64,000 nt of DNA from an uncultured Prevotella sp. (GCA_963621245.1 CAVFCW010000004.1:54286-118285); one strand, 5' to 3'. Shown: positions 32,602-47,867, counted from the stretch's first letter. The notes: generated by a model not told the origin, from the sequence alone. Made by a program: numbers and translations.

Positions 32602-33573
32602 ATGCCTAAGAACATAACAATAAAAGAGGCAGCCGAAAGACTTCTTGCGTGGGACAACATCTGCGTTTATTCCCACGCAAGTCCCGACGGTGACACGCTG
32701 GGAAGTGCATCGGCATTGCTTCACATACTCGAGAACATGGGAAAGAAGACTGCTTTCCGCTGCAGCGACGAGTGCCCGAAAAAATTCTCTTATCTCTTTG
32801 ATGGACTCAAATTAGAGCTTGAGGATGAGAAAATCGAGCACCACATGACGGTGGACGTAGCCGACCCTAAGCTTCTCGGAAAATATAACGAACTTTATCT
32901 CGAAAACAACGATTTCTTTTCGCTTGCAGTCGATCATCACGGAACTCACGTCCCGTTTGCACGCGAGGAGTGGGTTGTCGGCGGCGAGCCGTCTAACTGC
33001 GAGCTTATGTACATGCTTTTCACCGAGATGAACGCAGAAATCACCCCCGACACCGCAAACTGTATTTATACGGGACTTGCAACCGACACGGGCTGTTTTA
33101 AGTATGCTTCCGTAAAGCCGAGCACGCATACCATTGCCGCAAAGCTTATGGAGCTTGGCGCAGACGCCGCAAAAATCAACCGTGAGATTTTCGACACCAG
33201 GACAAAAACCTATATAGCTCTTGAACAGGCGGTTCTCTCCAAAATCAGATATTACGGCGACGGTAAAGTTGCCGTTATCGATGTAACAAACGAGGATCGT
33301 GAGAAAACAGGCGCAACTCAGTCCGATACGGATATTATCTCATCTCTTCCGAGAATGATTGAGGGCGTTCTTGTCGGAATCACTCTCAAAGAGAAAGACG
33401 GCGGAGTTTGGAAAGCTTCCGTGCGTGCGGTTTTGCCCGCAGACGCCTCTGAAATATGCCAAAAATTCGGCGGCGGCGGTCATGTCGGTGCGGCAGGATG
33501 CGCTTTTGACGACACTGATTTGAAATCTGCCGAAAAGAGCCTTGTCGAGGCGGCTTTGGAGAACATAGGATGA
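32602..33573 (+). CDS. nrnA: DHH/DHHA1 phosphoesterase (NrnA-like oligoribonuclease/pAp phosphatase)
   Basis: H.SPDGDTLGSA, VDHH, and GGGH at the C-terminus. Confidence 0.8.
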   Translation: MPKNITIKEAAERLLAWDNICVYSHASPDGDTLGSASALLHILENMGKKTAFRCSDECPKKFSYLFDGLKLELEDEKIEHHMTVDVADPKLLGKYNELYLENNDFFSLAVDHHGTHVPFAREEWVVGGEPSNCELMYMLFTEMNAEITPDTANCIYTGLATDTGCFKYASVKPSTHTIAAKLMELGADAAKINREIFDTRTKTYIALEQAVLSKIRYYGDGKVAVIDVTNEDREKTGATQSDTDIISSLPRMIEGVLVGITLKEKDGGVWKASVRAVLPADASEICQKFGGGGHVGAAGCAFDDTDLKSAEKSLVEAALENIG

Positions 33574-34478
33574 ACGGCGTTATAATACTCGATAAGCCCG
33601 AGGGTTTCACGTCTTTTGACGCTGTTGCCGTCATGAGAAAAATAGCTCACGAAAAGAAAATCGGCCACACGGGAACTTTAGACCCCATGGCTACGGGAGT
33701 TTTGCCGATACTTTTGGGCAAAGGAACAAAATGTTCCGATCTTCTTCCCGATACCGACAAGGAGTATTCCGCTTCCTTTAAGCTGGGCGTTAAGAGCGAT
33801 ACTCTTGACAGCACGGGGAAAATTCTCGAGGAACACTACGAAAAAATCTCCCTTGAAACGCTTCAAAGCGCGCTTGTCGCTTTCAGAGGAGAAATCGAGC
33901 AGATTCCTCCGATGTATTCGGCGGTTCAGGTCGGTGGCGTGCGCCTTTATGACCTTGCAAGAAAGGGAATAGAAGTCGAGAGAAAAAGCCGTAAAGTCAA
34001 CATATCGCTTTTAAGACTTGATAATTACGACGAAACAAGCGGCGAGGGAGAACTCACCGTTCGTTGTTCAAAGGGAACGTATATCAGAACGCTTATTGAC
34101 GATATTGCGAGAAGTCTTTCTCTTTGCGGCGGAATTATGACTGCACTCAGAAGAACCCGTGCTTGCGGATTCGGAATAGATGACGCTTTAAGTCTCGATG
34201 AGCTTAAAATGCTTGCCGAGGAAGAAAAAATCGAAAGCGCATTAAGACCGCTTGACGGACTTTTTTCGGAGTACCGCAAGGTGAATGTGTCGAACGCACA
34301 GATGAACAGATACTTAAACGGCGGCGAACTTGCCCTCGAGAGACTTCACCTCAAATTTAACGAGGACGGCGAGCGCATAAGGGTTTATTCGCCCGACGGA
34401 AAGATTTTTCTCGGACTCGGACAGGTCGACACAGCCGAAAAACAAATGAAAATACTCAAGATACTTCATGTGAAGTAA
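33570..34478 (+). CDS. truB: tRNA pseudouridine(55) synthase
   Basis: GVIILDKPEGFTSFD...RKI...KKIGHTGTLDPMATGVLPI and IPPMYSA. Confidence 0.95.
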   Translation: MNGVIILDKPEGFTSFDAVAVMRKIAHEKKIGHTGTLDPMATGVLPILLGKGTKCSDLLPDTDKEYSASFKLGVKSDTLDSTGKILEEHYEKISLETLQSALVAFRGEIEQIPPMYSAVQVGGVRLYDLARKGIEVERKSRKVNISLLRLDNYDETSGEGELTVRCSKGTYIRTLIDDIARSLSLCGGIMTALRRTRACGFGIDDALSLDELKMLAEEEKIESALRPLDGLFSEYRKVNVSNAQMNRYLNGGELALERLHLKFNEDGERIRVYSPDGKIFLGLGQVDTAEKQMKILKILHVK

Positions 34479-34499
34479 AGGAAAAACTCAGGATAACAG

Positions 34500-35417
34500 A
34501 TGCAAATTTACAGAGAATTAAACGGTTTTTCAAAAAAGAATAAATCGGTCGCAGTGGCACTCGGCGCATTTGACGGACTTCATCTCGGACACCAAAAGGT
34601 CATCTCTCAGGTGATGTCGGAAGGCTTCGAGCCAAGCGTTTTCACCTTTTCGGAGGATCCGTCAAAGGTGCTTTCGGGCAAAACCGAGTATCTCATGACG
34701 GAAGACGACAAAATCGCTTTTCTCGAAGAAATGGGAATTAAAAACGTGTTTGACATAAGCTTCGGCGCGGTCAAAGATTTAACCGCCGAGGAATTTTTCT
34801 TTGATGTTCTGCTTGAAAAATGCGGCGTCGGATTGATTTCGTGCGGTGACGATTTCCGTTTCGGCAAGAAAGCAGCCGGAGATGTTACGCTTTTAAAAAA
34901 ACTTTGTGACGAAAACGGCATCGTGCTCAAAATTTGTCCGCCCGTTATGCTGGGTTCATCGGTTATCCATTCCTCGGCGATAAGGTCGGCTCTCAAAAAG
35001 GGAGATACCGTCACGGCAAGAAAAATGCTCGGCAGACCGTTCGGTTTTTCGCTTGAGGTGATTCACGGCAATTCCATCGGCAGAACCATAGGCATTCCCA
35101 CGATTAACCAAAGATTGCCAGGTGGCTTTGTTCTTCCGCTTTTCGGAGTTTATGCCGCATGCGTTCACATTGACGGAAAAATCTACCACGGCACGTGCAA
35201 CATCGGAGTTAAGCCGACTGTCGGCTCGAACGTTCCGCTTGCCGAAACGTGGATATCGAATTATTCGGGCGACCTCTACGGGAAAAAGCTTAAACTCGAC
35301 GTTCTCGATTTCATACGCCCCGAGAAGAAATTTTCTTCTCTCTCGGAGCTTAAGTCGGAAATTGAGAGAAATGCTCTCGAAGCCGAGAGAATATGCACGG
35401 AGTATCTCGAAAACTGA
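34500..35417 (+). CDS. ribF: bifunctional riboflavin kinase / FAD synthetase
   Basis: ALGAFDGLHLGHQKV in the FMN adenylyltransferase domain, and GIPT.N...GVYA..V.....Y....NIG..PT in the kinase domain. Confidence 0.93.
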   Translation: MQIYRELNGFSKKNKSVAVALGAFDGLHLGHQKVISQVMSEGFEPSVFTFSEDPSKVLSGKTEYLMTEDDKIAFLEEMGIKNVFDISFGAVKDLTAEEFFFDVLLEKCGVGLISCGDDFRFGKKAAGDVTLLKKLCDENGIVLKICPPVMLGSSVIHSSAIRSALKKGDTVTARKMLGRPFGFSLEVIHGNSIGRTIGIPTINQRLPGGFVLPLFGVYAACVHIDGKIYHGTCNIGVKPTVGSNVPLAETWISNYSGDLYGKKLKLDVLDFIRPEKKFSSLSELKSEIERNALEAERICTEYLEN

Positions 35418-35431
35418 ATATAAATTTTGAG

Positions 35432-35470
35432 GCACTTCACGCCGCTTATGGCGTGGAGTGCTTTTTTGTT
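35432..35470 (+). terminator. intrinsic terminator of the nusA-infB-ribF operon
   Basis: Stem GCACTTCACGCC / GGCGTGGAGTGC, followed by TTTTTTGTTTG. Confidence 0.8.
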
Positions 35471-35708
35471 TGTTCTTTGTATACAAAAAGAATATTTTTA
35501 CATTTTGTATTCAGAATACTGTATCGCTTTAATGAAAAGAAACGGCATTTTTGAGAGGGCGAAAATCTGTTCTTTCAAAATCCGAATATTTTCCCTATGA
35601 CATTTTTGAAAAAAGCCGTCACTCTCGGCTTTGACATATATTTTTGTAAAAAATGTTAATAGATAATTAAAATTTTTGACCGTGAGTATTTCATTTGTGG
35701 TAATTTGA

Positions 35709-35717
35709 TGTTATAAT
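35709..35717 (+). promoter_or_regulatory. extended -10 element (TGTTATAAT) upstream of the mrp cluster
   Basis: TGT plus TATAAT at 35709-35717. There is no convincing -35. It lies ~140 nt upstream of mrpE in a 390-bp AT-rich spacer. Confidence 0.25.
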
Positions 35718-35859
35718 TTTTATCAATATGATTATTCGATAAAGTTATCGCATTTTAACGGGAAATGCTTTTCCTTACCGAATTTTTACCGACTTCAATT
35801 TTATAAGGTCGGATTTTCATTTTGCTTTTAAAGAAATTATGTATGAAGGAGGTATTTTT

Positions 35860-36360
35860 ATGTATTTGTTGCTTTTTGTGATGTGGATTATATTTAACGG
35901 CAACATAACTCTTGAAATTGTTCTTTTCGGCTTGTTCGTATCTGCCGGAGTTTTTGCTTTTTGCTGTTTCTTTATGGATCACAGCATCAAAAAGGAAATT
36001 GCACTCTACAAAAACCTTATTAGCGGCTTTTGCTATGCCGTGGTGCTTGTGGTAGAGATTGTGAAGGCAAATAACTTTGTTCTTAAAATGATACTCACGC
36101 AGAAAGAGGAGCCCGTACCCGCTGTAGTCAGTTTTCGCACTAAGCTGAAAACAAACGCAGGCAGAGCTTTTCTTGCCAACGCCATCACGCTTACGCCCGG
36201 TACGATTACGGTCATGATGGAAAACGAATGGTATCTTGTTCACTGCCTCGATGAAAGCTTGGCAGAGGGCATGGACGACTCCGATTTCGTGCATCGCATT
36301 CAGAAAATGGAGGATAGGGCGCTTCAGTCGATGAATAAGAAGGGGGACAAGAAAAAATGA
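35860..36360 (+). CDS. mrpE: Na+/H+ antiporter subunit E (MrpE/MnhE/MbhA-like)
   Basis: ..FVMWIIFNG......LFG..VS...F........LI.....V..ANN.V........P....F......NAITLTPGTI.V is the MnhE pattern. ATG 35860 follows GGAGG. Confidence 0.8.
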   Translation: MYLLLFVMWIIFNGNITLEIVLFGLFVSAGVFAFCCFFMDHSIKKEIALYKNLISGFCYAVVLVVEIVKANNFVLKMILTQKEEPVPAVVSFRTKLKTNAGRAFLANAITLTPGTITVMMENEWYLVHCLDESLAEGMDDSDFVHRIQKMEDRALQSMNKKGDKKK

Positions 36361-36668
36361 GTTTGGTTTCTGCCTTTTTTACCGTTGTTTTGATAATTCT
36401 TGCTCTTCTGATAATTCTTTGCCTTGTAAGGGCGGTTATCGGCCCGAGCGTTGCCGACAGAATTGTTGCCACAAATATGACCGGTACGCTTGTCATCACG
36501 GCTATTGCCGTGCTTGCCGTTAAAATGCGCGAAGGCTATCTTGTGGATATTTGCCTTATCTATGCGCTCATAAGCTTTTTGGCGGTCATTGTTCTCACAA
36601 AAGTTTATATGGGAGTTTACATTCAGAGAAAGTCCGGAAAGGAGGATAAGCACGATGAGCGCTATTGA
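36357..36668 (+). CDS. mrpF: monovalent cation/H+ antiporter subunit F (MrpF/MbhB-like)
   Basis: LCLVRAVIGPSVADRIVA.N..GT........L........D..L.YAL..FL is the MnhF motif. Confidence 0.85.
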   Translation: MSLVSAFFTVVLIILALLIILCLVRAVIGPSVADRIVATNMTGTLVITAIAVLAVKMREGYLVDICLIYALISFLAVIVLTKVYMGVYIQRKSGKEDKHDERY

Positions 36669-37038
36669 GTGGGTAAGATTTATCATCGGAGCGGCTCTGC
36701 TTATTTTCGGAGTTTTTATTTTTGTGGTTCAGATGATAGGAATTTTCAAGTTTAATTATGTCCTAAACAGAATGCACGCCGCCGCCATGGGCGATACGCT
36801 GGGTCTCGGCAGCAGTCTTCTCGGACTTATCATAATAAACGGATTTGATTTTACAAGCCTTAAGCTTTTTATAATCATCGTCTTTTTGTGGTTTTCTTCT
36901 CCCGTTTCGTCTCACCTTATCACAAGGCTTGAAATGACGACGGACGAGCATCACCACGATCACTACAAGGTTTTCGATCTTCACGAGAACGACGTGCCCG
37001 TCGGTCAGACCGACGACGAAAAGAAAGAGGTGGAATAA
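36655..37038 (+). CDS. mrpG: monovalent cation/H+ antiporter subunit G (MrpG/MbhC-like)
   Basis: GA.LLIFGVFIF.V..IGI.KF......RMHAA...DTLG is the MnhG motif. The start follows GGAGG and overlaps the mrpF end. Confidence 0.85.
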   Translation: MSAIEWVRFIIGAALLIFGVFIFVVQMIGIFKFNYVLNRMHAAAMGDTLGLGSSLLGLIIINGFDFTSLKLFIIIVFLWFSSPVSSHLITRLEMTTDEHHHDHYKVFDLHENDVPVGQTDDEKKEVE

Positions 37039-37331
37039 TGCAGGTATTTATGATTATTCTGCTTGTGTTTCTTGTGGTGTGTGCGGTGTGCGCAAGCTTT
37101 TCAAAGAGTCTTCTCAACACGATACTCATTTTCATGAGTTTCAGCTTGGTTATGTCTATCATTTGGATGGTTTTGGAGTCGCCAGACCTCGCAATAACGG
37201 AGGCGGCAGTCGGCGCAGGCGTCACGAGCATACTTTTCTTTTTGACGCTCAAGAAAATTCACGCCATAGAAAACAACCCCGAAGATTCTGAAGAAAAGGA
37301 GGAAGAGGAAAATGGCAAGGAAACTAAGTGA
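37038..37331 (+). CDS. MbhD-like small membrane subunit (DUF4040; corresponds to part of the MrpA C-terminal domain)
   Basis: SPDLAITEAAVGAGVTSILF is the characteristic DUF4040/MbhD motif. 97 aa with an acidic tail. Confidence 0.7.
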   Translation: MQVFMIILLVFLVVCAVCASFSKSLLNTILIFMSFSLVMSIIWMVLESPDLAITEAAVGAGVTSILFFLTLKKIHAIENNPEDSEEKEEEENGKETK

Positions 37332-38256
37332 CGGCGAGTACAAAAAGACCTTTTCCTACAAATTCTCTTCTTGGTTTAACGGAACGAGGGAATATTTTGT
37401 CGGCGAGCTTGAGATGAAGCCGCAGCCGGTAAAAAAACCGAGAAAGCCGCTTGCTCCCGCAGATCCGAACAGAAAAGCGTTTGATTTGAGAAACAACAAT
37501 GGCTTTAAGGAATTCACAAAAATATACCGTGTGTTCAGCGTTTTGCTGTGCCTTTTCATCGTGGTCATGCTGCTTATAGGAGTTAGCAAACTTCCCACTT
37601 ACGGCAGTGCGGACAGAGCCGTGAACAATGAGGTCGCCGCAAGATACATCGAATCGGGCGAACAGGAAACAGGTTCCGTAAATATAGTTACGGGAATGAT
37701 TTTAACCTACCGTGCGTTCGATACTTTCGGCGAGACCAACGTTCTCTTTATCGCAACGATTTGCGTTATGATAATGCTTGCCCTCGACGATAAAATTCTC
37801 AGAAAGGCAGAGGAGCACAACGACAGAATTTACGAGCCGAAAAATGACGTCATACTCCAGACGGTCGCAAAAATTCTGGTTCCGATAATTATGGTTTTCG
37901 GAATTTACATCATCGTGAACGGTCAACTTTCTCCCGGCGGCGGATTTTCGGGCGGCGCAACTCTCGGTGCGGCATTCACGCTGTTTTTGTGTGCGTTCGG
38001 CTTCAAGAAAACCGGTCGATTCCTAAACGAAAAGGTATATTCCGTTGCAAAGGTTACGGCCCTTTGCGCTTACGGCGCAATCGGAACTTATTACTACACA
38101 TGCGGCGCAAACGGAATAAACGATCACATTCCGCTTGGCACTCTCGGCAATATTCTCTCGGGCGGTATCATTTTCCCGATAGATGTTTGTGTAGGCGTTG
38201 AGGTTGCATGCACCATGTACGCATTCTACGCTTTGTTCAGAAGAGGAGGACTTTAA
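37312..38256 (+). CDS. mrpB: MnhB/MrpB-domain subunit (MbhE/F-like) with ~90-aa N-terminal extension
   Basis: VNIVTGMILTYRAFDTFGE and NGQLSPGGGFSGGA are MnhB-domain motifs. Confidence 0.8.
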   Translation: MARKLSDGEYKKTFSYKFSSWFNGTREYFVGELEMKPQPVKKPRKPLAPADPNRKAFDLRNNNGFKEFTKIYRVFSVLLCLFIVVMLLIGVSKLPTYGSADRAVNNEVAARYIESGEQETGSVNIVTGMILTYRAFDTFGETNVLFIATICVMIMLALDDKILRKAEEHNDRIYEPKNDVILQTVAKILVPIIMVFGIYIIVNGQLSPGGGFSGGATLGAAFTLFLCAFGFKKTGRFLNEKVYSVAKVTALCAYGAIGTYYYTCGANGINDHIPLGTLGNILSGGIIFPIDVCVGVEVACTMYAFYALFRRGGL

Positions 38257-38257
38257 T

Positions 38258-38635
38258 ATGCTTTCGGGACTTCTTGCAAATTATCCTTTAGCTGTTTCCG
38301 TAATCCTTTTCGGAATAGGCTTCTGCAATCTGCTTCTTCAGAAAAATCTGATCAAGAAAATTATCGGCTTCAACATTATGGACTCTGCGATTTATCTCTT
38401 TTTGGCACTTCAGGGCTACATCGAGGGAAGAATTGCGCCAATTGTCGTGGACGGCATTCAGCAGACGGACAAATATATCAATCCGATTCCTTCGGGACTT
38501 GTTCTCACGGGCATTGTCGTTTCGGTCTCCGTCTCGGCTGTTATGCTCTCGATCACAATAAGACTTTATCGCCGTTATCACACATTGAATCTCGATGAGA
38601 TAAGCACGATAGTAAACGAGGAGGACAGCAAATAA
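38258..38635 (+). CDS. mrpC: antiporter subunit C (MrpC/NuoK-like)
   Basis: ..ILFGIGFCNLLLQKNLIKKIIGFNIMDSAIYLF is the NuoK/MnhC pattern. ATG 38258 follows GAGGAGGA. Confidence 0.85.
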   Translation: MLSGLLANYPLAVSVILFGIGFCNLLLQKNLIKKIIGFNIMDSAIYLFLALQGYIEGRIAPIVVDGIQQTDKYINPIPSGLVLTGIVVSVSVSAVMLSITIRLYRRYHTLNLDEISTIVNEEDSK

Positions 38636-40152
38636 TGGAGCTTGTACAGTCCTTCCCGTCTTTCAGCATACTCATGTGTATGTTCGGAGGAATCATTACG
38701 TCTGCGGTTCACAACGGCAAAGCCGCAAAAAAGATTAACACATGTCTTTTGGTTATCGTGACGATCATGAGCTTTTGCGTGCTCACATTCACGATTAAAT
38801 CGGGAGACTACTACATCTACCAAATGGGCAGATTTTCCGCTCCGTGGGGAAACGAACTGCGCATAGGAATTCTCGAGGCAATGATGGCATTTTTCTTCTG
38901 CGTCATCATGCTGCTCTCCATGGTGGGCGGTTCTCTCGAGAGAGAAAAAGAGATAGAAAAAGGAAAGGCAAATCTCTATTATGTTCTTGCCAATCTTCTC
39001 TTGAGCTCGCTTCTTGCCCTTGTTTACACCAACGACCTTTTCACCGCTTACGTTTTTATAGAGATAAACACAATCTCCGCCTGCGGACTTATCATGGTAA
39101 ATCAGCACGGCAAAAACATCGAGGCGGCGGCACGCTACATGGTTATGAGCCTTTTGGGTTCGGGTCTTGTTCTGCTCGGCCTTTGCTGGCTTTACAGCAT
39201 AACGGGACATCTTCTCATGATGAATATTCATTCGGCTGTTGTGGCTCTCGTTCAAAACGGAAGCTATCACGTGCCGCTGGTCGTGTCGGTTACCATGATG
39301 GTAACGGGACTTGCGATAAAATCGGCGCTTTTCCCATTTCACACTTGGCTGCCAGACGCTTACGGCTACTCCACGCTTTCGTCGGCGGCTATACTCTCGT
39401 CTCTCGTCTCAAAGGGCTATCTTTTCCTTGTCATCAAGATTTTCTACCGTGTTATCGGCTTCGACATAATCTACGATGAAAAAATAGTCGATGTTCTCTT
39501 TGTTTTCGGTATAGCGGGAATGATTTTCGGCTCGATTGACGCAATAAGAGAAAACGACATCAGACGAATGATAGCTTATTCTTCCGTGGCTCAGATTGGA
39601 TATATCTACATGGGATTCGGTCTCGGAACAACCTACGGAATGATAGCAAGCATTTACCACATTCTCGTCCATGCCGCAACAAAGTCTTTGCTGTTCATAT
39701 GCGCCTCGGGACTTACGGACGCTTCAAACGGCAAGCGGGATTTCCTAAGCCTTACCGGTGCGGCATACAGAAACAAGCTTGCGGGAGTCACCTTTATGGT
39801 GGGTTCGCTCTCGATGATAGGTTTCCCCGCATTCGGCGGATTTATCAGCAAACTTCTTTTTGCCGAGGCCGGTGTCGAGTGCAAAAACAAAATGCTCCTC
39901 ACATTCCTTGCGCTTGCCGTGAGCACAATCTTAAATGCGGTGTACTTCATGAAAACCGTTGTCAGAATTTATACTCCCGCCCACAAATCGAGAGTTAAAG
40001 TCGATACGGAAGGCTACGAAAATATAAGCATGAAGATGCAGCCCGCAAAGAGTTTCTCCATGATTCTTTTAATCGTAATCAACTTCGTTTTGGGTCTTGC
40101 TTCCGATCCGATAGTCGATCTCATAAGCAAGGGCTTAGCCATGTTCTCATAA
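38635..40152 (+). CDS. mrpD: antiporter-like subunit 1 (MrpD/NuoN/MbhH family, PF00361-type)
   Basis: 505 aa, polytopic. It has HTWLPDAY...SSAAILSS and MIAYSSVAQIGY. Its start overlaps the mrpC stop (TAATG). Confidence 0.85.
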   Translation: MELVQSFPSFSILMCMFGGIITSAVHNGKAAKKINTCLLVIVTIMSFCVLTFTIKSGDYYIYQMGRFSAPWGNELRIGILEAMMAFFFCVIMLLSMVGGSLEREKEIEKGKANLYYVLANLLLSSLLALVYTNDLFTAYVFIEINTISACGLIMVNQHGKNIEAAARYMVMSLLGSGLVLLGLCWLYSITGHLLMMNIHSAVVALVQNGSYHVPLVVSVTMMVTGLAIKSALFPFHTWLPDAYGYSTLSSAAILSSLVSKGYLFLVIKIFYRVIGFDIIYDEKIVDVLFVFGIAGMIFGSIDAIRENDIRRMIAYSSVAQIGYIYMGFGLGTTYGMIASIYHILVHAATKSLLFICASGLTDASNGKRDFLSLTGAAYRNKLAGVTFMVGSLSMIGFPAFGGFISKLLFAEAGVECKNKMLLTFLALAVSTILNAVYFMKTVVRIYTPAHKSRVKVDTEGYENISMKMQPAKSFSMILLIVINFVLGLASDPIVDLISKGLAMFS

Positions 40153-40162
40153 GGAGGGGAAG

Positions 40163-41677
40163 ATGAATACTTTATTGATAGTTCCGTCGTTCCTCTCGGC
40201 GGTTGTGGGAATATGCGTCCTCGTTTCGTCTTTTCGTGATCACGCCCACTCGAAGGACTGGTTCGGCAAGAGCGTTCCCGAAAGCGGAATAAAAACGCTT
40301 CACGCCGTAACGCTTGCGACAATCGGAGTTTCTGCGGCAATAGCGATATTCTGCGCTTGGGCTCACATGAATACCGAACTTCACCTTTTCAGCTTTGTCG
40401 GCGGAATTCCCGTCTACTTCAAAAACGATGAGATTTCGGCACTTTTTGTTACCGTGGCGTCTGTCGTCTGGCTTTCCATTTGCGTCTATGCGTTCAAGTA
40501 CATGAAACACGAGGGCAACGAAAAACGCTTTTTCGGAATTTACATGATAGTTTTCGCCGTTGTAGTTGCGCTTTGTTTTTCGGGCAACCTCATAACTTTC
40601 TATTTCTGCTATGAGCTTATGACAATCACCTCAATGGTGCTTGTGCTTCACAGCGGAACAAGAGAGGCGATAATGGCGGCTCTCAAATATCTTTTCTATT
40701 CCATGGCCGGCGCTTACTGCGCTCTTTACGGAATTTACATTCTCTATCAGAATACGGACAGCCTTACTTTCACCCCCGGCGGTACGCTCAATCTTCAGTC
40801 GGCTGAAAGCAACCGAACCATAGTGCTTATTGCGATATTCTTCATGCTCATCGGTTTCGGCGCAAAGGCGGGTATGCTTCCGCTTCACGGCTGGCTTCCG
40901 GCGGCTCATCCCGTTGCGCCCGCACCCGCTTCGGCGGCTCTCTCGGCGATTATCGTCAAGGGCGGCGTTTTGGCTGTTATCCGAACGGTTTATTACATCG
41001 TCGGCGCAGAATTCATAAGAGGAACATGGGTTCAGTACGCTTGGATGGGTCTTGCACTCATGACCGTCCTGATGGGTTCTATGCTCGCTTACAAAGAAAA
41101 AGTTTTCAAAAAGCGACTCGCTTATTCGACCGTATCTCAGGTATCTTACATTCTTTTCGGCTTGTCATGCTTGAGCGAGGGCGCGCTTGACGGTGCGCTT
41201 CTGCACGTGGTTTTCCACGCCGTGATAAAAACTTCGCTGTTTTTAACCGCAGGAATATTTATTTTCCGTACGGGCAAAACGAACGTCTCAGACTTTACGG
41301 CAATCGGAAAAAAATATCCCGTCACGCTTTGGGCGTTTACGCTTTCTTCGCTTGCGCTTATCGGTATTCCTCCTTGCAGCGGATTTATAAGCAAGTGGTA
41401 TCTGGCACAGGGAGCACTCGGCTCGAACATCGGCATTATGAGATTTGTCGGCCCGTGCGTGCTTCTTTTGAGTGCTCTTTTGACTGCCGGCTATCTGCTT
41501 CCGATTGCGATTAACGGCTTTTTGCCCGGCAAGGAATGCACAATAAAAAGGGAAAAAGAGAAAATTGATTCCATGACGGTCGTGGTTTTCGTTATGGCGG
41601 TTCTCGCCGTGCTTCTCGGAATTTTTCCGAATCCGCTTATTAATTTTGTCGGCGGTATTTCCGCTGCCGTTCTTTAA
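40163..41677 (+). CDS. mrpD: antiporter-like subunit 2 (MrpD/NuoM-N family)
   Basis: 504 aa with HGWLPAAHPVAPAPASAALSAIIVKGGV and LAYSTVSQVSYI. Confidence 0.85.
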   Translation: MNTLLIVPSFLSAVVGICVLVSSFRDHAHSKDWFGKSVPESGIKTLHAVTLATIGVSAAIAIFCAWAHMNTELHLFSFVGGIPVYFKNDEISALFVTVASVVWLSICVYAFKYMKHEGNEKRFFGIYMIVFAVVVALCFSGNLITFYFCYELMTITSMVLVLHSGTREAIMAALKYLFYSMAGAYCALYGIYILYQNTDSLTFTPGGTLNLQSAESNRTIVLIAIFFMLIGFGAKAGMLPLHGWLPAAHPVAPAPASAALSAIIVKGGVLAVIRTVYYIVGAEFIRGTWVQYAWMGLALMTVLMGSMLAYKEKVFKKRLAYSTVSQVSYILFGLSCLSEGALDGALLHVVFHAVIKTSLFLTAGIFIFRTGKTNVSDFTAIGKKYPVTLWAFTLSSLALIGIPPCSGFISKWYLAQGALGSNIGIMRFVGPCVLLLSALLTAGYLLPIAINGFLPGKECTIKREKEKIDSMTVVVFVMAVLAVLLGIFPNPLINFVGGISAAVL

Positions 41678-41689
41678 GGAGGTACAAAT

Positions 41690-43171
41690 ATGCCGTCATA
41701 TATGATGTTAGCTGCTGTACTTATCCCGATAGTCAGCGGAATTTCGGTTATGCTGATACCGTTCAAATCGGCAAGGGCAAGAAATGTTTACATCGAGATA
41801 TTCACACTTATAACCTCGGTAATCATTTTTGCTTTGATATTCAACCGTCCCGAGGGATCTATCACCATTTTCAGATTTACGGGACAACTCACCATAGGAC
41901 TCTCTCTTGACAGAGTGGGATCTGTTTTCTCGGTTATAATTGCTTTCTTGTGGCCGTTTGCGAATTTGTATGCGTTCGAGTACATGGAGCATGACTCAAG
42001 ACAGCACATGTTCTTCGGGTTTTATCTAATAACCTACGGCGTCACTGCGGGCATTGCCATGAGCGAGGGCATTGTCTCTATGTACTTCTTCTATGAGCTT
42101 CTCACCATGGTCACTATTCCGCTTGTCATTCACGAGTTAAACCCCGAGTCCGTTTATGCAACAAGAACCTATATGTATTATTCTTTGGGTGGTGCGGCTT
42201 TTGCGTTTATCGGCATGATATTCATTCTCATGTTCGGCACAAGTCACAGCTTTGTGCCCGGCGGCGTTCTCGATATGACCGAAGTCGACTCAAGAACGAA
42301 TTTGATGCTTATAGTTTACGTTCTCTGCTTTTGCGGTTTCTCCGTCAAGGCGGCGATGTTCCCGTTCTCCGATTGGCTTCCCAAGGCGGGCGTTGCGCCA
42401 ACTCCCGTTACGGCTTTGCTTCACGCCGTTGCGGTTGTTAAAGCCGGTGCGTTCGCCACGGTTCGAATCACATATTTCTGTTTCGGCACGGAGTTTTTGA
42501 AAGGAACATGGGCGCAGTACCTTCTCATGGGGCTTACTTCGTTCACGATAGTTTACGGCTGTTCCAGAGCACTCAAGGAGACTCATTTTAAAAGGCGTCT
42601 TGCATGGTCTACCGTCTCGAATTTGTCGTACATCATGTTCGGCGTTGTCATAATGACCCCCGAGGGACTAACGGGCGGACTTTGCCACATGATTGTTCAC
42701 GCACTTGTTAAAATCACTGCGTTTTTCTGCGCCGGTGCGGTCATTCACCGTGCGAATAAGAATTATATCTACGAGCTTGACGGTTTGGGCAGAAGAATGC
42801 CTTTGACGTTTATCGTTTACACCATATCGGGCTTTGCACTGATGGGCGTGCCGGGACTTGCGGGATTTACCAGCAAGTGGAGCCTGGCTCATGCGGCTAC
42901 GACAAGCGGCAATTTCATGGGATATGTCGGTTTGGGATGCATTCTTATTTCTGCACTTCTCACGGCGATTTACATGTTGACCGTTTCCGTGCGTGCGTTC
43001 TTCCCCGGAAAGGATTTTGATCATTCCACAATTTCTAAGGACATAAGCGATCCCACATGGAGAATGCTTGTTCCGCTCTTTGTGTTCGTTGTTTTGATGT
43101 TTGTTATCGGACTTTGCCCGAGCTTGCTCACAAACGCAGTCGAAAGCGTTGTAAGCAGTGTGATTTCTTGA
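41690..43171 (+). CDS. mrpD: antiporter-like subunit 3 (MrpD/NuoM-N family)
   Basis: 493 aa with DWLPKAGVAPTPVTALLHAVAVVKAG and LAWSTVSNLSYI. Confidence 0.85.
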   Translation: MPSYMMLAAVLIPIVSGISVMLIPFKSARARNVYIEIFTLITSVIIFALIFNRPEGSITIFRFTGQLTIGLSLDRVGSVFSVIIAFLWPFANLYAFEYMEHDSRQHMFFGFYLITYGVTAGIAMSEGIVSMYFFYELLTMVTIPLVIHELNPESVYATRTYMYYSLGGAAFAFIGMIFILMFGTSHSFVPGGVLDMTEVDSRTNLMLIVYVLCFCGFSVKAAMFPFSDWLPKAGVAPTPVTALLHAVAVVKAGAFATVRITYFCFGTEFLKGTWAQYLLMGLTSFTIVYGCSRALKETHFKRRLAWSTVSNLSYIMFGVVIMTPEGLTGGLCHMIVHALVKITAFFCAGAVIHRANKNYIYELDGLGRRMPLTFIVYTISGFALMGVPGLAGFTSKWSLAHAATTSGNFMGYVGLGCILISALLTAIYMLTVSVRAFFPGKDFDHSTISKDISDPTWRMLVPLFVFVVLMFVIGLCPSLLTNAVESVVSSVIS

Positions 43172-43184
43172 CGGAGGTGGAAAA

Positions 43185-45125
43185 ATGAAAACAATGCTTC
43201 CCGCAGTTTTGGTTTTGCTTCCGTTCTTGGGTGCGCTCTTCGGCGGAATAATCGGCACGAAAAACGAAAAGGCAAGAGATTATTTTGCCGATATAATCGT
43301 GATTGCCGAGTTCGTGATAATGACATTCTCGTTTATCAAATTCAGCGCAACCTACGGAGACTACTGCCACATAGGTGAGATTTGCGGTTTCGGTCTCAAT
43401 TTCACCTTTGACGGATTCCGACTTCTCTACGGACTTGTTGCGGCGTTTATGTGGATGATGACCACGATACTTTCAAGAGAGTATTTCACTCATCACGACA
43501 ACCGCAACCGATTTTATATCTTTATGCTCCTCACGCTTGGGGCAACGATGGGCGTTTTTCTCTCGTCCGATCTGTTCACAACGTTTATATTCTTCGAGAT
43601 TATGAGCTTCACATCCTATGTGTGGGTCGCTCAGGAGGAAACTCCCGGTGCGCTTCGGGCGGCGGCAACATATCTCGGAGTAGCCGTTATCGGCGGACTT
43701 GTAATGCTCATGGGCATATTCATGCTTTACTTTAAGCTTGGCACGCTTGAGATGAGCGAACTTCTCTCGGCTTCTTCTGCCGTAACGAACAAAGCTTATC
43801 TTTACGTTGCCGGTGCTTTTCTCACCTTCGGCTTCGGCGCAAAGGCCGGCGCATTTCCGCTTCACATTTGGCTTCCCAAGGCTCATCCCGTTGCACCGGC
43901 TCCCGCTAGCGCATTGCTTTCGGGCATACTCACAAAGTCGGGCGTCTTCGGCGTGATAGTCGTAAGCTTCAATATTTTCCTCGGTGACGCCGCATGGGGA
44001 AAGTGGATACTTGCGATAGGCGTTCTCACGATGTTCGGCGGCGCTCTGCTTGCGGTTTTCTCGGTCGATTTGAAGAGAACTCTCGCTTGCTCGTCCATGT
44101 CGCAGATTGGATTTATTCTTGTCGGAATCGGCACGGCTAATATTCTCGATGAAGAAATTTTCCTTGCCGTGCACGGCTCACTGCTTCACATGGTCAATCA
44201 CTCGCTTATCAAGCTTGTGCTTTTTATGGCTGCCGGTGTTATCTACATGAACACTCATGCGCTTGACCTCAACGATATTCGCGGTTTCGGAAGAAAAAAG
44301 CCTGCGCTCATGATTATTTTCCTAGTCGGTGCGCTTGCAATCGGCGGCGTTCCGATGTTCGGCGGTTACATAAGCAAGACGCTTCTTCACGAGAGCATAC
44401 TTTTGTGCGAGTTCGGCGGAAAATACAACTGGACAAAAATCGTGGAGTGGATATTTCTCTTGAGCGGCGGCCTCACGGTTGCTTATATGACCAAGCTTTT
44501 TGTCGCCGTCTTTGTTGAAAAGAACGAGGACGAAAAAAAGCAGAAAAAGTTTGACGAGAACAAGAAATACATGAATTTCGAGTCGGCTTTTGCGCTCGGT
44601 GGTTCGGCGTTGGTGCTTTTTGTCTGGGGACTTTTCCCGTATAAATTTATGGACAAGGCGGCTCGCCTCGGAGAAAGCTTTTTCGACTACTCGGGAGAAA
44701 CCGAAAAAATCAACTATTTCAGTCTTGAGAATCTGAAGGGTGCTTTTATCTCGATAGCAATCGGAGCGATTGTTTATTTTGTGATTGTCAGACCGCTTTT
44801 GATGAAAGACAAGAGATATGTGAACCTTTGGCCGAAGTGGTGGGATACCGAGGACTACATTTACCGTCCGCTTTTGCTGATTGTGATTCCGAATGTTCTC
44901 ACGTTCTTCTGCCGCATTTGCGACAGCCTTGTGGACATCATCGTTTGGGGATTGAGAAAAACGATTTACCGAGACTCAAAGATTCCGTGGCTTAAGCGAC
45001 CGAAGAATATGAAATATCAGTACATGAGAGAAACCACAAGCATTATTCAGAGAAGTATTTCTTACGGATTTATGCTTTTCGGATTGGGACTAATAATAAC
45101 GGTGCTTTATCTCATACTCGCTTGA
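43185..45125 (+). CDS. mrpA: antiporter-like subunit 4, NuoL/MrpA-like with long C-terminal extension
   Basis: 646 aa with HIWLPKAHPVAPAPASALLSGILTKSGV and LACSSMSQIGFI. After the core there is a Lys/Glu-rich segment (EKNEDEKKQKKFDENKK) and further hydrophobic spans. Confidence 0.8.
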   Translation: MKTMLPAVLVLLPFLGALFGGIIGTKNEKARDYFADIIVIAEFVIMTFSFIKFSATYGDYCHIGEICGFGLNFTFDGFRLLYGLVAAFMWMMTTILSREYFTHHDNRNRFYIFMLLTLGATMGVFLSSDLFTTFIFFEIMSFTSYVWVAQEETPGALRAAATYLGVAVIGGLVMLMGIFMLYFKLGTLEMSELLSASSAVTNKAYLYVAGAFLTFGFGAKAGAFPLHIWLPKAHPVAPAPASALLSGILTKSGVFGVIVVSFNIFLGDAAWGKWILAIGVLTMFGGALLAVFSVDLKRTLACSSMSQIGFILVGIGTANILDEEIFLAVHGSLLHMVNHSLIKLVLFMAAGVIYMNTHALDLNDIRGFGRKKPALMIIFLVGALAIGGVPMFGGYISKTLLHESILLCEFGGKYNWTKIVEWIFLLSGGLTVAYMTKLFVAVFVEKNEDEKKQKKFDENKKYMNFESAFALGGSALVLFVWGLFPYKFMDKAARLGESFFDYSGETEKINYFSLENLKGAFISIAIGAIVYFVIVRPLLMKDKRYVNLWPKWWDTEDYIYRPLLLIVIPNVLTFFCRICDSLVDIIVWGLRKTIYRDSKIPWLKRPKNMKYQYMRETTSIIQRSISYGFMLFGLGLIITVLYLILA

Positions 45126-45146: not shown

Positions 45147-45192
45147 GGGCTGTGTGCAATTTTAATGATTGCGCACAGCCCTATTTGTTTTT
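45147..45192 (+). terminator. intrinsic terminator of the mrp cluster
   Basis: A 14-bp stem, GGGCTGTGTGCAAT / ATTGCGCACAGCCC, followed by TATTTGTTTTT. Confidence 0.8.
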
Positions 45193-45279: not shown

Positions 45280-45861
45280 ATGATTTATATCAATCAGCTT
45301 GAAAGAAAAGAAATTCCGTTTGAGCACGACCTCGATAACGGCGGTGCCGGCGAATACTCAAATGTTGCCGCAGCAGGATGCGGCCCGTGCAGCGTCTGCA
45401 TGGTTATCAATAATATGACTATGGATACTCCTTCGCTTGAGGAGATAATTAATCTTGTATATGAGGCAAAGGCAAACAGAGAGCCGGGAACGGATATGAA
45501 GCTTTTGGCTCCGCTTGTAGCCGAGAGATTTAATCTTGACTATAAATCCACGGATAACATCGGCGAGCTTATCGCTCACCTTCAAAACGGAGGCATGGCT
45601 GTCGCAAATGTCGGCGGCGACAGAGAGGGCCACATCGGTGTGTTTTCTCATGGCGGTCACTACATTGCGGTTATCGGTTTTGTAAACGGCGAGCTTTGCA
45701 TTTTAGATCCGTCATACAAGACGGATAAATTTAACGAGGACGGAAGAAGAGGATTAATAAGAGAAATTCCGCCTTACCTTTACTGCGCTCCCGAGGTTCT
45801 TGTGAGGGATACCGAGAACAGAACTCCCGGTTACTATCTTTTTTCGAGGAAGTCAAAATAA
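45280..45861 (+). CDS. C39-like (papain-fold) cysteine peptidase domain protein
   Basis: AAAGCGPCSVCMVINNM (candidate nucleophile Cys) and GGHYIAVIGFVNGELCILDPS (candidate His) fit the Peptidase_C39-like pattern. No signal peptide or ABC fusion is evident. Confidence 0.6.
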   Translation: MIYINQLERKEIPFEHDLDNGGAGEYSNVAAAGCGPCSVCMVINNMTMDTPSLEEIINLVYEAKANREPGTDMKLLAPLVAERFNLDYKSTDNIGELIAHLQNGGMAVANVGGDREGHIGVFSHGGHYIAVIGFVNGELCILDPSYKTDKFNEDGRRGLIREIPPYLYCAPEVLVRDTENRTPGYYLFSRKSK

Positions 45862-46175
45862 TGGCAAGTTATAAAGGAGAGGGCGGAGAATACGAGATTA
45901 TCGCCTTCACGATTACGGATATAGACGAGAGCGAGCAGGTGTACGAGGGTTATGCCGTTGAATATGCCGACGATGAGGATATAGATATTCTCGAGAGCTT
46001 TGACGATTTGGGCGAGGCAAACGAGGCTTTTTATAACGACGACAACGCCTACTACAAAACCCTTCAAAAGAAAGGCGAAGACTTTGTTTGTTCTTTCGTG
46101 AGAGAGTGTGTGATTTGTCACAGGGATACAGGCAGAATTTTAGCGGTTTCGCATGTGATTCCCGAGGGAAAATAA
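45861..46175 (+). CDS. hypothetical acidic protein, 104 aa
   Basis: The ATG overlaps the upstream TAA (TAATG). The protein is very Asp/Glu-rich (..YADDEDIDILESFDDLGEANEAFYNDDN..) with a C-terminal CxxC-like CVICH. I recognise no family. Confidence 0.5.
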   Translation: MASYKGEGGEYEIIAFTITDIDESEQVYEGYAVEYADDEDIDILESFDDLGEANEAFYNDDNAYYKTLQKKGEDFVCSFVRECVICHRDTGRILAVSHVIPEGK

Positions 46176-46176
46176 A

Positions 46177-47103
46177 ATGGCTGTAACGATACTTTTGATA
46201 AAAAAGATAATTTCGCTTTTTATCATAATGATGGTGGGCGTTCTAATGGTGCGCCTTAAACTTCTAAAACCGGAGGACTCAAAGCCGCTGTCGGTTTTGA
46301 TGCTCTATGCCGTTGTGCCGTGCACGATACTCAATGCGTTTCAGGTTGATTACACGCCAAATGTTTTGAGGGGGCTTGCGCTCACGGTGGCTTGCGCCAC
46401 CTTTACGCATTTATTCTGGCTTGTTTTGATTAAGCTTTTGGAAAAAACGCTCAAGACGGATGTAATCGAGAATATGTCGATAATGTACACCAATGCGGGG
46501 AATTTGATTATTCCTATTGTGACAAGCGTTTTGGGCGAGGATATGGTTATATATTCTGTCGGCTACATGGGAATTCAGCTTATTTTTATGTGGACGCACC
46601 TTGTCTCGCAAATGAGGGGAAGCCGTGGCTTTGACTTTAAGAAGATAATTACAAATGTAAATTTGATAGTCGTTTTTATTGGCATAGTGATTTTCTTAAC
46701 TCAGTTTAAATTTCCGTCTTTTGTTCAGGATGCACTCAGCTCCATAAGCTCCACAATAGGCCCGCTTGCCATGATAGTAATAGGAATGCTCATCGGCGGA
46801 ATAAAATTAAAGGAAATTGTTGTCTACAGGCGTGTTTGGCTCGTAACATTTTTGCGGCTTATAGTTTTTCCGCTCACTATACTTTTGATATTAAAGCTTG
46901 TGCCGTTATGGACGGCTGTTGACGGCGGAAAAGAAATTTTGCTCGTGTTTTTCCTCGCTTGCGTCACTCCGTCGGCATCAACCGTCACTCAGATGGCTCA
47001 GGTTTTTGAAAACGACGCCCGCTATGCAAGCGCAATAAATGTTATTTCAACGCTTGCAAGTCTTGTTACCATGCCTTTGATGGTAATGCTCTATCAGCTT
47101 TAA
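46177..47103 (+). CDS. AEC (auxin efflux carrier) family transporter
   Basis: 308 aa with about 10 hydrophobic spans. ..MYTNAGNLIIPIV.. and ..CVTPSASTVTQMAQ.. are typical of AEC permeases. Confidence 0.8.
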   Translation: MAVTILLIKKIISLFIIMMVGVLMVRLKLLKPEDSKPLSVLMLYAVVPCTILNAFQVDYTPNVLRGLALTVACATFTHLFWLVLIKLLEKTLKTDVIENMSIMYTNAGNLIIPIVTSVLGEDMVIYSVGYMGIQLIFMWTHLVSQMRGSRGFDFKKIITNVNLIVVFIGIVIFLTQFKFPSFVQDALSSISSTIGPLAMIVIGMLIGGIKLKEIVVYRRVWLVTFLRLIVFPLTILLILKLVPLWTAVDGGKEILLVFFLACVTPSASTVTQMAQVFENDARYASAINVISTLASLVTMPLMVMLYQL

Positions 47104-47144
47104 AATACTTAAAGAGTCGCATAAAAGAAAGAGAGAATTTATAA

Positions 47145-47867
47145 ATGGAAAACAAAATAACAACGGTACTTTTTGACCTTGACGGAACTTTGCTCCCCAT
47201 GGACGAAATATACTTTTCAAAGCTGTATTTTGCTGCAATGGCAAAAAAGCTTGCGCCTTACGGCTACGAGGCTCAAAGCCTTATGAAAGCGGTTAGATGC
47301 GGCGTTGTCGCCATGCATCAAAATGACGGAAGCGATCTCAACAAAAACAAGTTTTGGAAGGCGTTCGCCTCTGTTTTGGGCGAGGATAAGCTCAAAGATA
47401 TGCCCGTTTTCGAGGAATTTTACAGAACAGACTTTGTGGCGGCAAAGGAAAGCTGCGGCTTTAACCCAAAAGCAAAGGAGACGGTCGATTACATAAAGTC
47501 AAAAGGCTTTAGGGTGGCTCTTGCCACGAATCCGATTTTTCCCTCGATTGCAACCGAGAGAAGAATTAAGTGGGCGGGACTTGATAAGAGCGACTTTGAG
47601 CTTTTTACAACCTACGAGAATTACAGCTACTGCAAGCCGAACCCGAAATATTACTCCGAGGTGTGCGAAAAGCTGAATGTCGATCCGAAAAACTGCCTGA
47701 TGATAGGTAATGACGCAACAGAGGACACGGCAGCCGAAAAACTCGGCATTAGGGTGTTTCTTTTAACCGACTGTTTGATAAATAACAACGGCGTCGATAT
47801 AAGCGCTTACCCAAATGGCGGATTTGACGACCTCAAAAAGTATATTGATGAAATTATTGGAGAGTGA
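47145..47867 (+). CDS. HAD-superfamily hydrolase
   Basis: Motif I is VLFDLDGTLL. Motifs II-IV are ATNP, KP and GNDATED. Confidence 0.85.
   Translation: MENKITTVLFDLDGTLLPMDEIYFSKLYFAAMAKKLAPYGYEAQSLMKAVRCGVVAMHQNDGSDLNKNKFWKAFASVLGEDKLKDMPVFEEFYRTDFVAAKESCGFNPKAKETVDYIKSKGFRVALATNPIFPSIATERRIKWAGLDKSDFELFTTYENYSYCKPNPKYYSEVCEKLNVDPKNCLMIGNDATEDTAAEKLGIRVFLLTDCLINNNGVDISAYPNGGFDDLKKYIDEIIGE

Follow-up and report, generated by a model that had tools for sequence, protein, structure and literature searches.

Four antiporter-like subunits in a ten-gene Mrp-type operon, very probably encoding a self-contained cation/proton antiporter of group 3 build

Organisation of the operon

The window analysed here is a stretch of 64,000 nucleotides (nt) deposited as DNA of an uncultured Prevotella sp. 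(GCA_963621245.1 CAVFCW010000004.1:54286-118285). At positions 35860-45125 it carries ten genes of the + strand, packed between two strong terminators, that together form an mrp operon. They encode, in this order, MrpE, MrpF, MrpG, an MbhD-like protein, a fusion of the MbhE and MnhB domains, MrpC and four antiporter-like subunits, referred to below as D1, D2, D3 and the terminal subunit. A preliminary description made from the sequence alone had read the order as E, F, G, DUF4040, MnhB, C, three D-like proteins and a NuoL/MrpA-like protein, and this was borne out by Pfam and by the reading of starts and ribosome-binding sites. The matching families were PF01899, PF04066, PF03334, PF13244, PF20501, PF04039, PF00420 and, four times, PF00361, all above the curated cut-offs. 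None of the ten proteins reached the cut-off of an NCBIfam equivalog model, and no member of their protein clusters carries a name. The ten genes very probably represent a self-contained Mrp (CPA3) cation/proton antiporter with the Mbh/Mbs-like build of "group 3", enlarged to four pumps.

Each gene begins with ATG preceded by a GGAGG-type ribosome-binding site, and consecutive genes either overlap by 1-20 nt or are separated by 1-13 nt. An intrinsic terminator at 35429..35464 on the + strand (16-bp stem including 8 G-C pairs, then a T run) ends the upstream rimP-...-ribF operon and is presumably the 5' limit of the mrp unit, and a second one at 45147..45181 on the same strand (15-bp stem, 8 G-C pairs, T run) closes it. 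With terminators on both sides, the ten genes are predicted to form a self-contained transcription unit. A consensus scan gave a candidate sigma-70 promoter on the + strand at 35705..35732 (TTGATG-16-TATGAT, with TG before the -10), ~130 nt 5' of mrpE, and a second candidate at 35644-35673. Within the 420-nt leader, the search for a riboswitch or another Rfam family returned only sub-threshold chance matches.

Small subunits

The first three genes are mrpE (35860..36360, 166 amino acids (aa); PF01899, E = 5e-28), mrpF (36357..36668, 103 aa; PF04066, E = 7e-13) and mrpG (36655..37038, 127 aa; PF03334, E = 1e-21). The previously proposed start of mrpE at 35860 holds: GGAGG lies 7 nt before the ATG and the 166-aa form is the one recorded in the protein collection, so that the longer open reading frame (ORF) from 35839 does not give the true start. 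MrpF carries the conserved motif GPSVADR, the Asp-Arg pair of which is presumably equivalent to D32/R33 of Bacillus pseudofirmus MrpF (PMC5703873).

The following gene (37038..37331, 97 aa) encodes the MbhD/DUF4040-like subunit (PF13244, E = 2e-19), which aligns with positions ~600-700 of the full-length MrpA models of NCBIfam. It is followed by a 314-aa protein (37312..38256) in which PF20501 (MbhE) and PF04039 (MnhB) are joined; its closest solved relative over residues 72-300 is MbsE of the Pyrococcus MBS complex (6u8y_E, E = 7e-25), in which MbhE and MbhF are likewise fused. The C-terminal domain of MrpA is therefore split here into MbhD and the first half of the 314-aa protein. The MbhE part corresponds to the rest of that domain and the MnhB/MbhF part to MrpB. 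The preliminary description had already suggested such a split, and indeed no protein of the operon joins PF00361 with PF13244 or PF20501. The small subunits are of the archaeal Mbh/Mbs type. They are completed by the NuoK-like mrpC (38258..38635, 125 aa; PF00420, E = 1e-20). As a separate observation, the 314-aa fusion starts with a Lys/Arg/Pro-rich N-terminal extension of ~70 aa (window 37312-37520) that is absent from MbsE.

Antiporter-like subunits

D1 (38635..40152, 505 aa; PF00361, E = 2e-55) is MbsH/NuoN-like, with MbsH as its best match in the PDB (6u8y_H, 147 bits), and presumably adjoins MrpC. D2 (40163..41677, 504 aa) and D3 (41690..43171, 493 aa) are the middle subunits and match both PF00361 and PF00662. 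D2 is of the MbhH/MrpD type and finds its best PDB match in MbhH (177 bits), and for D3 the PDB ranking is MbhH, MbsH, NuoL and MrpA; the motif LLHAVAVVKAG in its transmembrane helix (TM) 8 is similar to the MrpA/NuoL counterpart. The terminal subunit (43185..45125, 646 aa; PF00361) ends in a NuoL-type C-terminus consisting of TM15, a lateral helix and TM16. Judged by PDB bit scores, D1 is nearest to MbsH, and D2, D3 and the terminal subunit are nearest to MbhH.

All four large subunits contain a Glu in TM5, a Lys in each of TM7 and TM8, the His-x3-His-x3-Lys of TM11 and a Lys in TM12. These are E143, K229, K260, H342, H346, K350 and K406 in D1 (invariant or nearly so in 67 orthologues), E151, K235, K266, H348, H352, K356 and K411 in D2 and E136, K220, K251, H333, H337, K341 and K396 in D3 (conserved in the orthologues of each), and E138, K220, K251, H335, H339, K343 and K398 in the terminal subunit (invariant in 79 orthologues). 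The channel positions are therefore invariant or nearly so in 67-79 orthologues, although the overall identity of these proteins is only 51-71%. They align with E137/K219 of MrpD and E140/K223 of MrpA from B. pseudofirmus, the roles of which have been described (PMC5703873), and K398 of the terminal subunit aligns with K399 of E. coli NuoL.

The preliminary description had pointed to a diverged motif in D1, WLPDAYGYSTLSS, and the divergence is real. The motif is kept at most positions in 67/67 orthologues, and since it is nearly invariant it represents a conserved trait and not decay. The suspicion that one or more D-like copies might be degenerate does not apply either, the Glu/Lys/His channel set being intact in all four; none of the large subunits is degenerate. 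Pairwise identities are 37% for D2-D3, 33% for D2-terminal, 27% for D3-terminal and 24-25% for D1 with the others. A recent duplication of the large subunits was ruled out, as the paralogues are only 24-37% identical and each has its own clade of orthologues.

Structure of the terminal subunit

The long C-terminal extension previously noticed in the 646-aa protein, with a Lys/Glu-rich segment and extra hydrophobic spans, can now be assigned to residue positions: the Lys/Glu-rich stretch lies at ~445-462 and the hydrophobic spans at 467-485, 521-539, 558-576 and 628-646. An AlphaFold2 model, built on 39 orthologues, reached a predicted local distance difference test score (pLDDT) of 81 and a predicted template modelling score (pTM) of 0.82. 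Beyond the 14-helix core, the model has helices at 465-483 and 514-539, a helix of 39 residues at 555-593, a low-confidence linker and a last helix at 609-645. Whole-chain comparison with Foldseek gave MrpA of B. pseudofirmus (7qru_A) and NuoL of Mycobacterium (8e9g_L) and Thermus (4he8), with TM-scores of 0.72-0.76 over 626-668 columns. The protein is thus predicted to have the fold of NuoL or of MrpA's N-terminal part, with a lateral clamp and an anchor helix, and only the last of the four large subunits has this NuoL-type pair.

In every complex of the superfamily, a lateral helix ties all antiporter-like subunits together (PMC8165549), and in the so-called 2M complex I an insertion of 26 aa accommodates the fourth pump (PMC9040806). 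Between TM15 and TM16 lie 88 aa in the protein of the window; E. coli NuoL has 80 aa there and the Blautia-type orthologues have ~120 aa, and in three three-pump clusters the segment ranges over 79-98 aa. A scaling of clamp length with the number of pumps was considered and rejected, because the segment spans 77-172 aa in four-pump operons and 79-98 aa in the three clear three-pump operons, and is longer in others. The terminal subunits of the window lineage are, at 646 aa, the shortest among the retrieved Lachnospiraceae orthologues (664-792 aa for the others). The difference falls at window 44800-45060 (residues ~540-627), in the variable, low-confidence linker from the lateral helix to the last TM helix.

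Evolutionary relationships

The relationships among the large subunits were evaluated in a tree of 104 antiporter-like proteins, calculated by a quick IQ-TREE run with support from the Shimodaira-Hasegawa-like approximate likelihood ratio test (SH-aLRT). The references were E. coli NuoL, NuoM, NuoN, HyfB, HyfD, HyfF and HycC, the group 1 Mrp of Tateyamaria, the group 2 Mrp of Streptomyces, the "green" complex I encoded on Sinorhizobium meliloti pSymA, and Peptoclostridium acidaminophilum; a Bacillus velezensis "plasmid" record was left out as group 1 reference, being riddled with frameshifts. This comparison with MrpA, MrpD and NuoL-M-N, which had been proposed in the preliminary description, resolved separate groups of orthologues, namely "first" (D1), "middle" (D2 and D3) and "terminal long" (support 96), the last including a 647-aa protein of Peptoclostridium. 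The four subunits of the window belong neither to the canonical MrpA+NuoL clade nor to the canonical MrpD clade.

D2 and D3 form sister clades (support 99), with the middle subunit of Peptoclostridium as their outgroup (99). Since the single middle subunit of a three-pump cluster is the outgroup of this pair, the four-pump form arose from a three-pump form, like that of P. acidaminophilum, by duplication of the middle subunit. The cluster of P. acidaminophilum DSM 3953 (NZ_CP007453, EAL2_RS12435-12475) shares the E-F-G-MbhD-MbhE-MnhB-C order, and its last gene encodes the 647-aa terminal subunit; in the tree, its subunits branch as outgroups to the D1, D2+D3 and terminal clades. Unlike the window operon, it has a single middle subunit, and its MbhE and MnhB are encoded by separate genes. 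In RefSeq it is annotated gene by gene, the large subunits as "proton-conducting transporter membrane subunit".

The existence of such three-pump clusters with the same small subunits, together with the NuoL-like length of the clamp helix, might suggest that the additional D-like genes are redundant relics and that the working complex contains only two or three pumps. This is most improbable: the four pump genes are intact, their channel residues have been kept in spite of the moderate overall identity of the orthologues, and D2 and D3 are old paralogues that have been retained side by side across genera and families.

Genomic search for a partner module

The preliminary description had left two alternatives, a large Mrp antiporter with four ion paths or the membrane arm of an enzyme whose peripheral partner is encoded elsewhere. 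The operon is flanked upstream by nrnA-truB-ribF and downstream by genes for a C39-like peptidase, an acidic protein, an AEC-family transporter, a HAD hydrolase and a pyridoxal-kinase-like protein. No redox module was found on either flank, in agreement with the earlier reading that NuoB/C/D/I-like, hydrogenase and ferredoxin modules are lacking there. The window genome comprises 2.36 Mb in 26 contigs and is 96.7% complete, and its only PF00361 genes are the four of the mrp operon. NuoB, NuoD, NuoH, the NiFe large subunit, NuoC and DabA (PF01058, PF00346, PF00146, PF00374, PF00329 and PF10070) gave no match in this genome, the positive controls being matched in reference genomes. The NuoH/MbhM-type connector (PF00146) was also not found in five further genomes with a four-pump operon (92-100% complete).

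Consequently, neither MbhM with MbhJ, K, L and N, which would characterise a complex of the MBH/MBS/Mbx type, nor the membrane subunits NuoA, H and J with the Q module of complex I/NDH-1 accompany the operon, and the window genome lacks the DabA (PF10070) of a DAB-type CO2 hydration pump. The operon could still specify the membrane arm of some energy-converting enzyme (driven by a redox reaction or otherwise) with a catalytic partner located elsewhere or of a novel type. The small subunits and D1 are nearer to the MBH/MBS membrane arm than to Bacillus Mrp, hydrogenases, complex I and DabA are known to have recruited Mrp-like arms (PMC8165549), and the tree places both MrpD-like proteins of the S. 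meliloti pSymA "green" complex I within the group 3 subunits. All known recruited forms, however, need either a NuoH/MbhM-like connector or DabA, and neither these nor the NuoB, NuoC, NuoD and NiFe subunits were found in the window genome; moreover, the operon is bracketed by terminators and its neighbour genes vary between lineages. A membrane arm with a distant partner is very unlikely, as no partner was found in the window genome and no connector in the five others. Of the two alternatives, the large four-path Mrp is thus the one supported by domains, channel residues and the predicted self-contained transcription unit, and the arm with a partner elsewhere finds no homologues to sustain it.

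With regard to the pSymA locus itself (CP140958.1 756601-777959), it reads nuoJ-K, an MrpD-family gene, a small ORF, a 586-aa MrpD-like gene and nuoM-N, and the tree pairs its two MrpD-like proteins with the middle and the terminal subunit that belong to a single stand-alone cluster from the phylum of the window.

Comparison with known systems

All seven domain types of Mrp/CPA3 systems are present in one operon, and the charged channel residues (TM5 Glu, TM7 Lys, TM12 Lys) occur in all four large subunits. An arrangement of group 1 (mrpABCDEFG) or group 2 (mrpA'CDEFG), for which operons of Tateyamaria and Streptomyces served as references, is not seen, the order being E-F-G-D'-B-C-D-D-D-A and the largest subunit having 646 aa. 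By their published description, group 3 Mrp systems have no mrpA but an mrpD, which in some cases is present more than once (PMC8415708, PMC5703873). In keeping with this, the window operon has no mrpA with a fused MrpB-like domain and only large subunits of MrpD type, with the caveat that its terminal subunit has the MrpA-like TM1-16 architecture. Group 3 is a loosely defined class, and the operon fits it as a four-pump variant that is intact, strongly conserved and common in its lineage. Group 3 Mrp with several MrpD copies has been named in reviews and the genes are routinely annotated, so the discovery is a modest one.

The only stand-alone archaeal group 3 Mrp that has been studied is the one-pump mrpEFGBB'CD (PF1147-53) of Pyrococcus furiosus (PMC8415708, PMC5703873). 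It shares with the window operon the E-F-G-B-type-C-D order, the split MrpA C-terminal domain, the absence of a redox module and antiporter-like subunits of the Mbh/Mbs type. It has, however, a single antiporter-like subunit without lateral helix, whereas the window operon has four, the last with a NuoL-type clamp, and the domain fusions differ, MbhD standing alone and MbhE being fused to MnhB in the window as in MbsE. The MBH and MBS complexes of P. furiosus (6CFW, 6U8Y) have the same module order, and their subunits MbsH, MbhH and MbsE are the best sequence matches of D1, of D2, D3 and the terminal subunit, and of the 314-aa fusion, respectively, but they carry MbhM/MbsM (NuoH-like) and the catalytic subunits J, K, L and N, none of which is found in the window genome, and only one or two pumps instead of four.

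Mrp complexes of groups 1 and 2 (B. pseudofirmus 7QRU, Anoxybacillus flavithermus 6Z16, Dietzia 7D3U) have the same seven domain types and presumably share stand-alone antiport, and the terminal subunit of the window superposes over its full length on TM1-16 of MrpA including the lateral helix. They differ by the order ABCDEFG, an MrpA of ~750-980 aa fused to the MrpB-like domain, and two pumps. According to its citation in PMC5703873, the group 3 Mrp of Aphanothece halophytica (mrpCD1D2EFGAB) is likewise stand-alone with an extra MrpD copy and acts as a Na+/H+ antiporter in E. coli; as cited there, it has three pumps, another gene order and separate full mrpA and mrpB. Rows of at least four antiporter-like subunits are found in the Nitrospira 2M complex I, the rhizobial "green" complex I and the five-pump complex I of Ca. 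Manganitrophaceae, where the additional pumps derive from MrpD-like genes, as stated in PMC9040806 (citing Chadwick 2018); in the tree, the MrpD-like subunits of S. meliloti pSymA cluster with the middle subunits of the family to which the window operon belongs. Those variants are redox-driven with full NuoA-N sets, which the window operon lacks, and in the 2M form an insertion of 26 aa lengthens the NuoL clamp for the fourth pump; the clamp segment measures 88 aa in the window and ~120 aa in Blautia-type orthologues. Literature searches on Mrp in connection with Lachnospiraceae, Blautia, Rnf or acetogens gave no functional or structural study of the clostridial ten-gene form; a paper on Natranaerobius deals with a single-gene Nha and not with an mrp operon.

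Proposed function

By homology, the product of the operon would catalyse antiport of a monovalent cation against H+. As in the solved structures of Mrp, MBH, MBS and complex I, the subunits would line up in gene order. MrpE, MrpF, MrpG and the MnhB domain would form a site for Na+ (or K+/Li+) at one end, with MbhD, MbhE and MrpC as a small half-channel module beside it, followed by D1, D2, D3 and the terminal subunit as a row of four proton channels with a charged central axis and the lateral-helix clamp. Entry of H+ down the proton-motive force would be coupled electrostatically to the expulsion of one cation at the E/F/G end, and the number of H+ per Na+ would rise with the number of channels. 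Such an exchanger would be strongly electrogenic (for electrogenic stoichiometry, see PMC7419157) and could operate even where the membrane potential is low, as in a fermenting anaerobe.

A transporter of Mrp type with another substrate or direction is unlikely, but it has some support in the literature. Such a system might exchange K+ or Ca2+ for H+, use Na+ to expel H+ under acid or short-chain-fatty-acid stress, or confer bile-salt tolerance through MrpF. Mrp systems specific for K+ and Ca2+ and a link of MrpF to bile-acid tolerance have been described (PMC5703873), the group 3 Mrp of P. furiosus was proposed to take Na+ in and H+ out upon acidification (PMC8415708), and the host is a gut anaerobe, its closest related genomes being recorded under animal-gut samples and under Lachnospiraceae, Blautia and similar taxa. 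The sequence features do not discriminate among ions; on the other hand, many proton channels per cation site should, on thermodynamic grounds, favour H+ entry with cation exit over the reverse, and the Asp-Arg motif typical of Na+ systems is retained in MrpF.

Several points weigh against the assignment as a self-contained four-pump cation/proton antiporter. The genome is a draft in 26 contigs, hence the absence of a partner is not absolute. The clamp segment has only 88 aa, and E. coli NuoL, whose segment has 80 aa, spans three pumps; measured against this, the clamp may be too short to reach over all four subunits. In addition, the last 50 residues of the terminal-subunit model are of low confidence. 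Ion specificity, direction and stoichiometry are all properties that we infer, and the physical order of the four pumps is taken from gene order and homology. Finally, no experiment on this operon or on any orthologous operon was found in the literature.

As to the ion circuits of the host, the window genome encodes Rnf (C1:192542-193817) and both a V-type ATPase and an F-type ATP synthase (G000:C1:45521-48940; G000:C2:193422-196607). The K subunit of the V-type enzyme (163 aa) contains LPGTQGIYG, a Gln and PAMVETY, which we take to represent the Thr/Gln, Gln and Glu ligand set of the Na+ V-ATPase of Enterococcus hirae, and the c subunit of the F-type enzyme (VFVETAIIY) presumably has Met where Na+-binding c-rings have Gln. 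The occurrence of the two ATPases together with Rnf suggests separate Na+ and H+ circuits. No CPA1/CPA2 exchanger (PF00999) was found in the window genome, and the other candidates for Na+/H+ exchange there are three weak, partial matches to the NhaC family. Because Rnf, a Na+-type V-ATPase and an F-ATPase are present and CPA1/CPA2 are absent, the mrp complex may be the main link between the Na+ and H+ gradients of the cell. As the only clearly recognisable Na+/H+ exchanger of the genome, it probably plays a key part in how abundant gut anaerobes balance ions and pH.

A high H+:Na+ ratio arising from four channels is plausible. More tentatively, and with considerable doubt, the four-pump complex may move ~4-5 H+ per Na+ and so interconvert the Na+ circuit (Rnf, Na+ V-ATPase) and the H+ circuit (F-ATPase) in gut Lachnospiraceae. 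If this is true, the series of two-, three- and four-pump forms lends itself to testing whether the stoichiometry grows by one proton with every antiporter-like subunit that is added. Coupling along the antiporter-like row in Mrp and complex I is debated, as is the question whether each subunit moves one proton per cycle, and natural exchangers with two, three and four pumps on a constant scaffold would permit a direct comparison of stoichiometry, electrogenicity and clamp length without redox chemistry.

Distribution and conservation

In a scan with one genome per species, at least 575 loci encode a relative of the terminal subunit, and nearly all of the best 80 are labelled Lachnospiraceae, Blautia, Oliverpabstia, Robinsoniella, Acetatifactor and similar. 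The ten genes occur in identical order, with 47-88% protein identity, in 60 of these 80 loci, the other 20 being cut by contig ends. In an even, genus-spread sample of the window's family, four pumps were found in 6 and three pumps in 5 of 301 genomes; with only six four-pump genomes in this sample, the operon is patchy across genera. Across the phylum, a gene of the MbhE/MnhB type is present in 110 of 401 genomes, and in 20 loci that were read, the E-F-G-MbhD-B-C order (in most of them complete) precedes two, three, four or more pumps. The arrangement is therefore not rare but the norm in hundreds of Lachnospiraceae species, with two-, three- and four-pump relatives widespread in the phylum. 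Of the earlier proviso that it might prove to be a common and already characterised subgroup, the first half is correct and the second is not.

In a comparison with the closest other species, identity amounts to 85-100% for the ten mrp proteins (at least 91% for nine of them) and to only 76-88% for the flanking truB, ribF, peptidase and transporter proteins (33570-35417, 45280-47867), which points to either unusually strong constraint on the operon or recent exchange. In a genome assigned to the same genus (G181:C1:28000-47999), the four-pump operon lies in a different neighbourhood and shows no more than 36-72% identity, the Blautia-type operons being closer (52-88%); this hints at operon replacement or lateral transfer within the family. 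In a complete genome of the phylum (G401:C1:2462000-2481999), three near-identical terminal-type paralogues of 716-729 aa surround one E-F-G-MbhD-B-C-D cluster, giving five antiporter-like genes at this locus. Many genomes of the family without the operon contain a single PF00361-like ORF of 640-680 aa, ~30% identical to the terminal subunit (e.g. G007:C17:4217-5155 and G136:C1:1190197-1191156), which may be a one-gene Nha- or DabB-like transporter.

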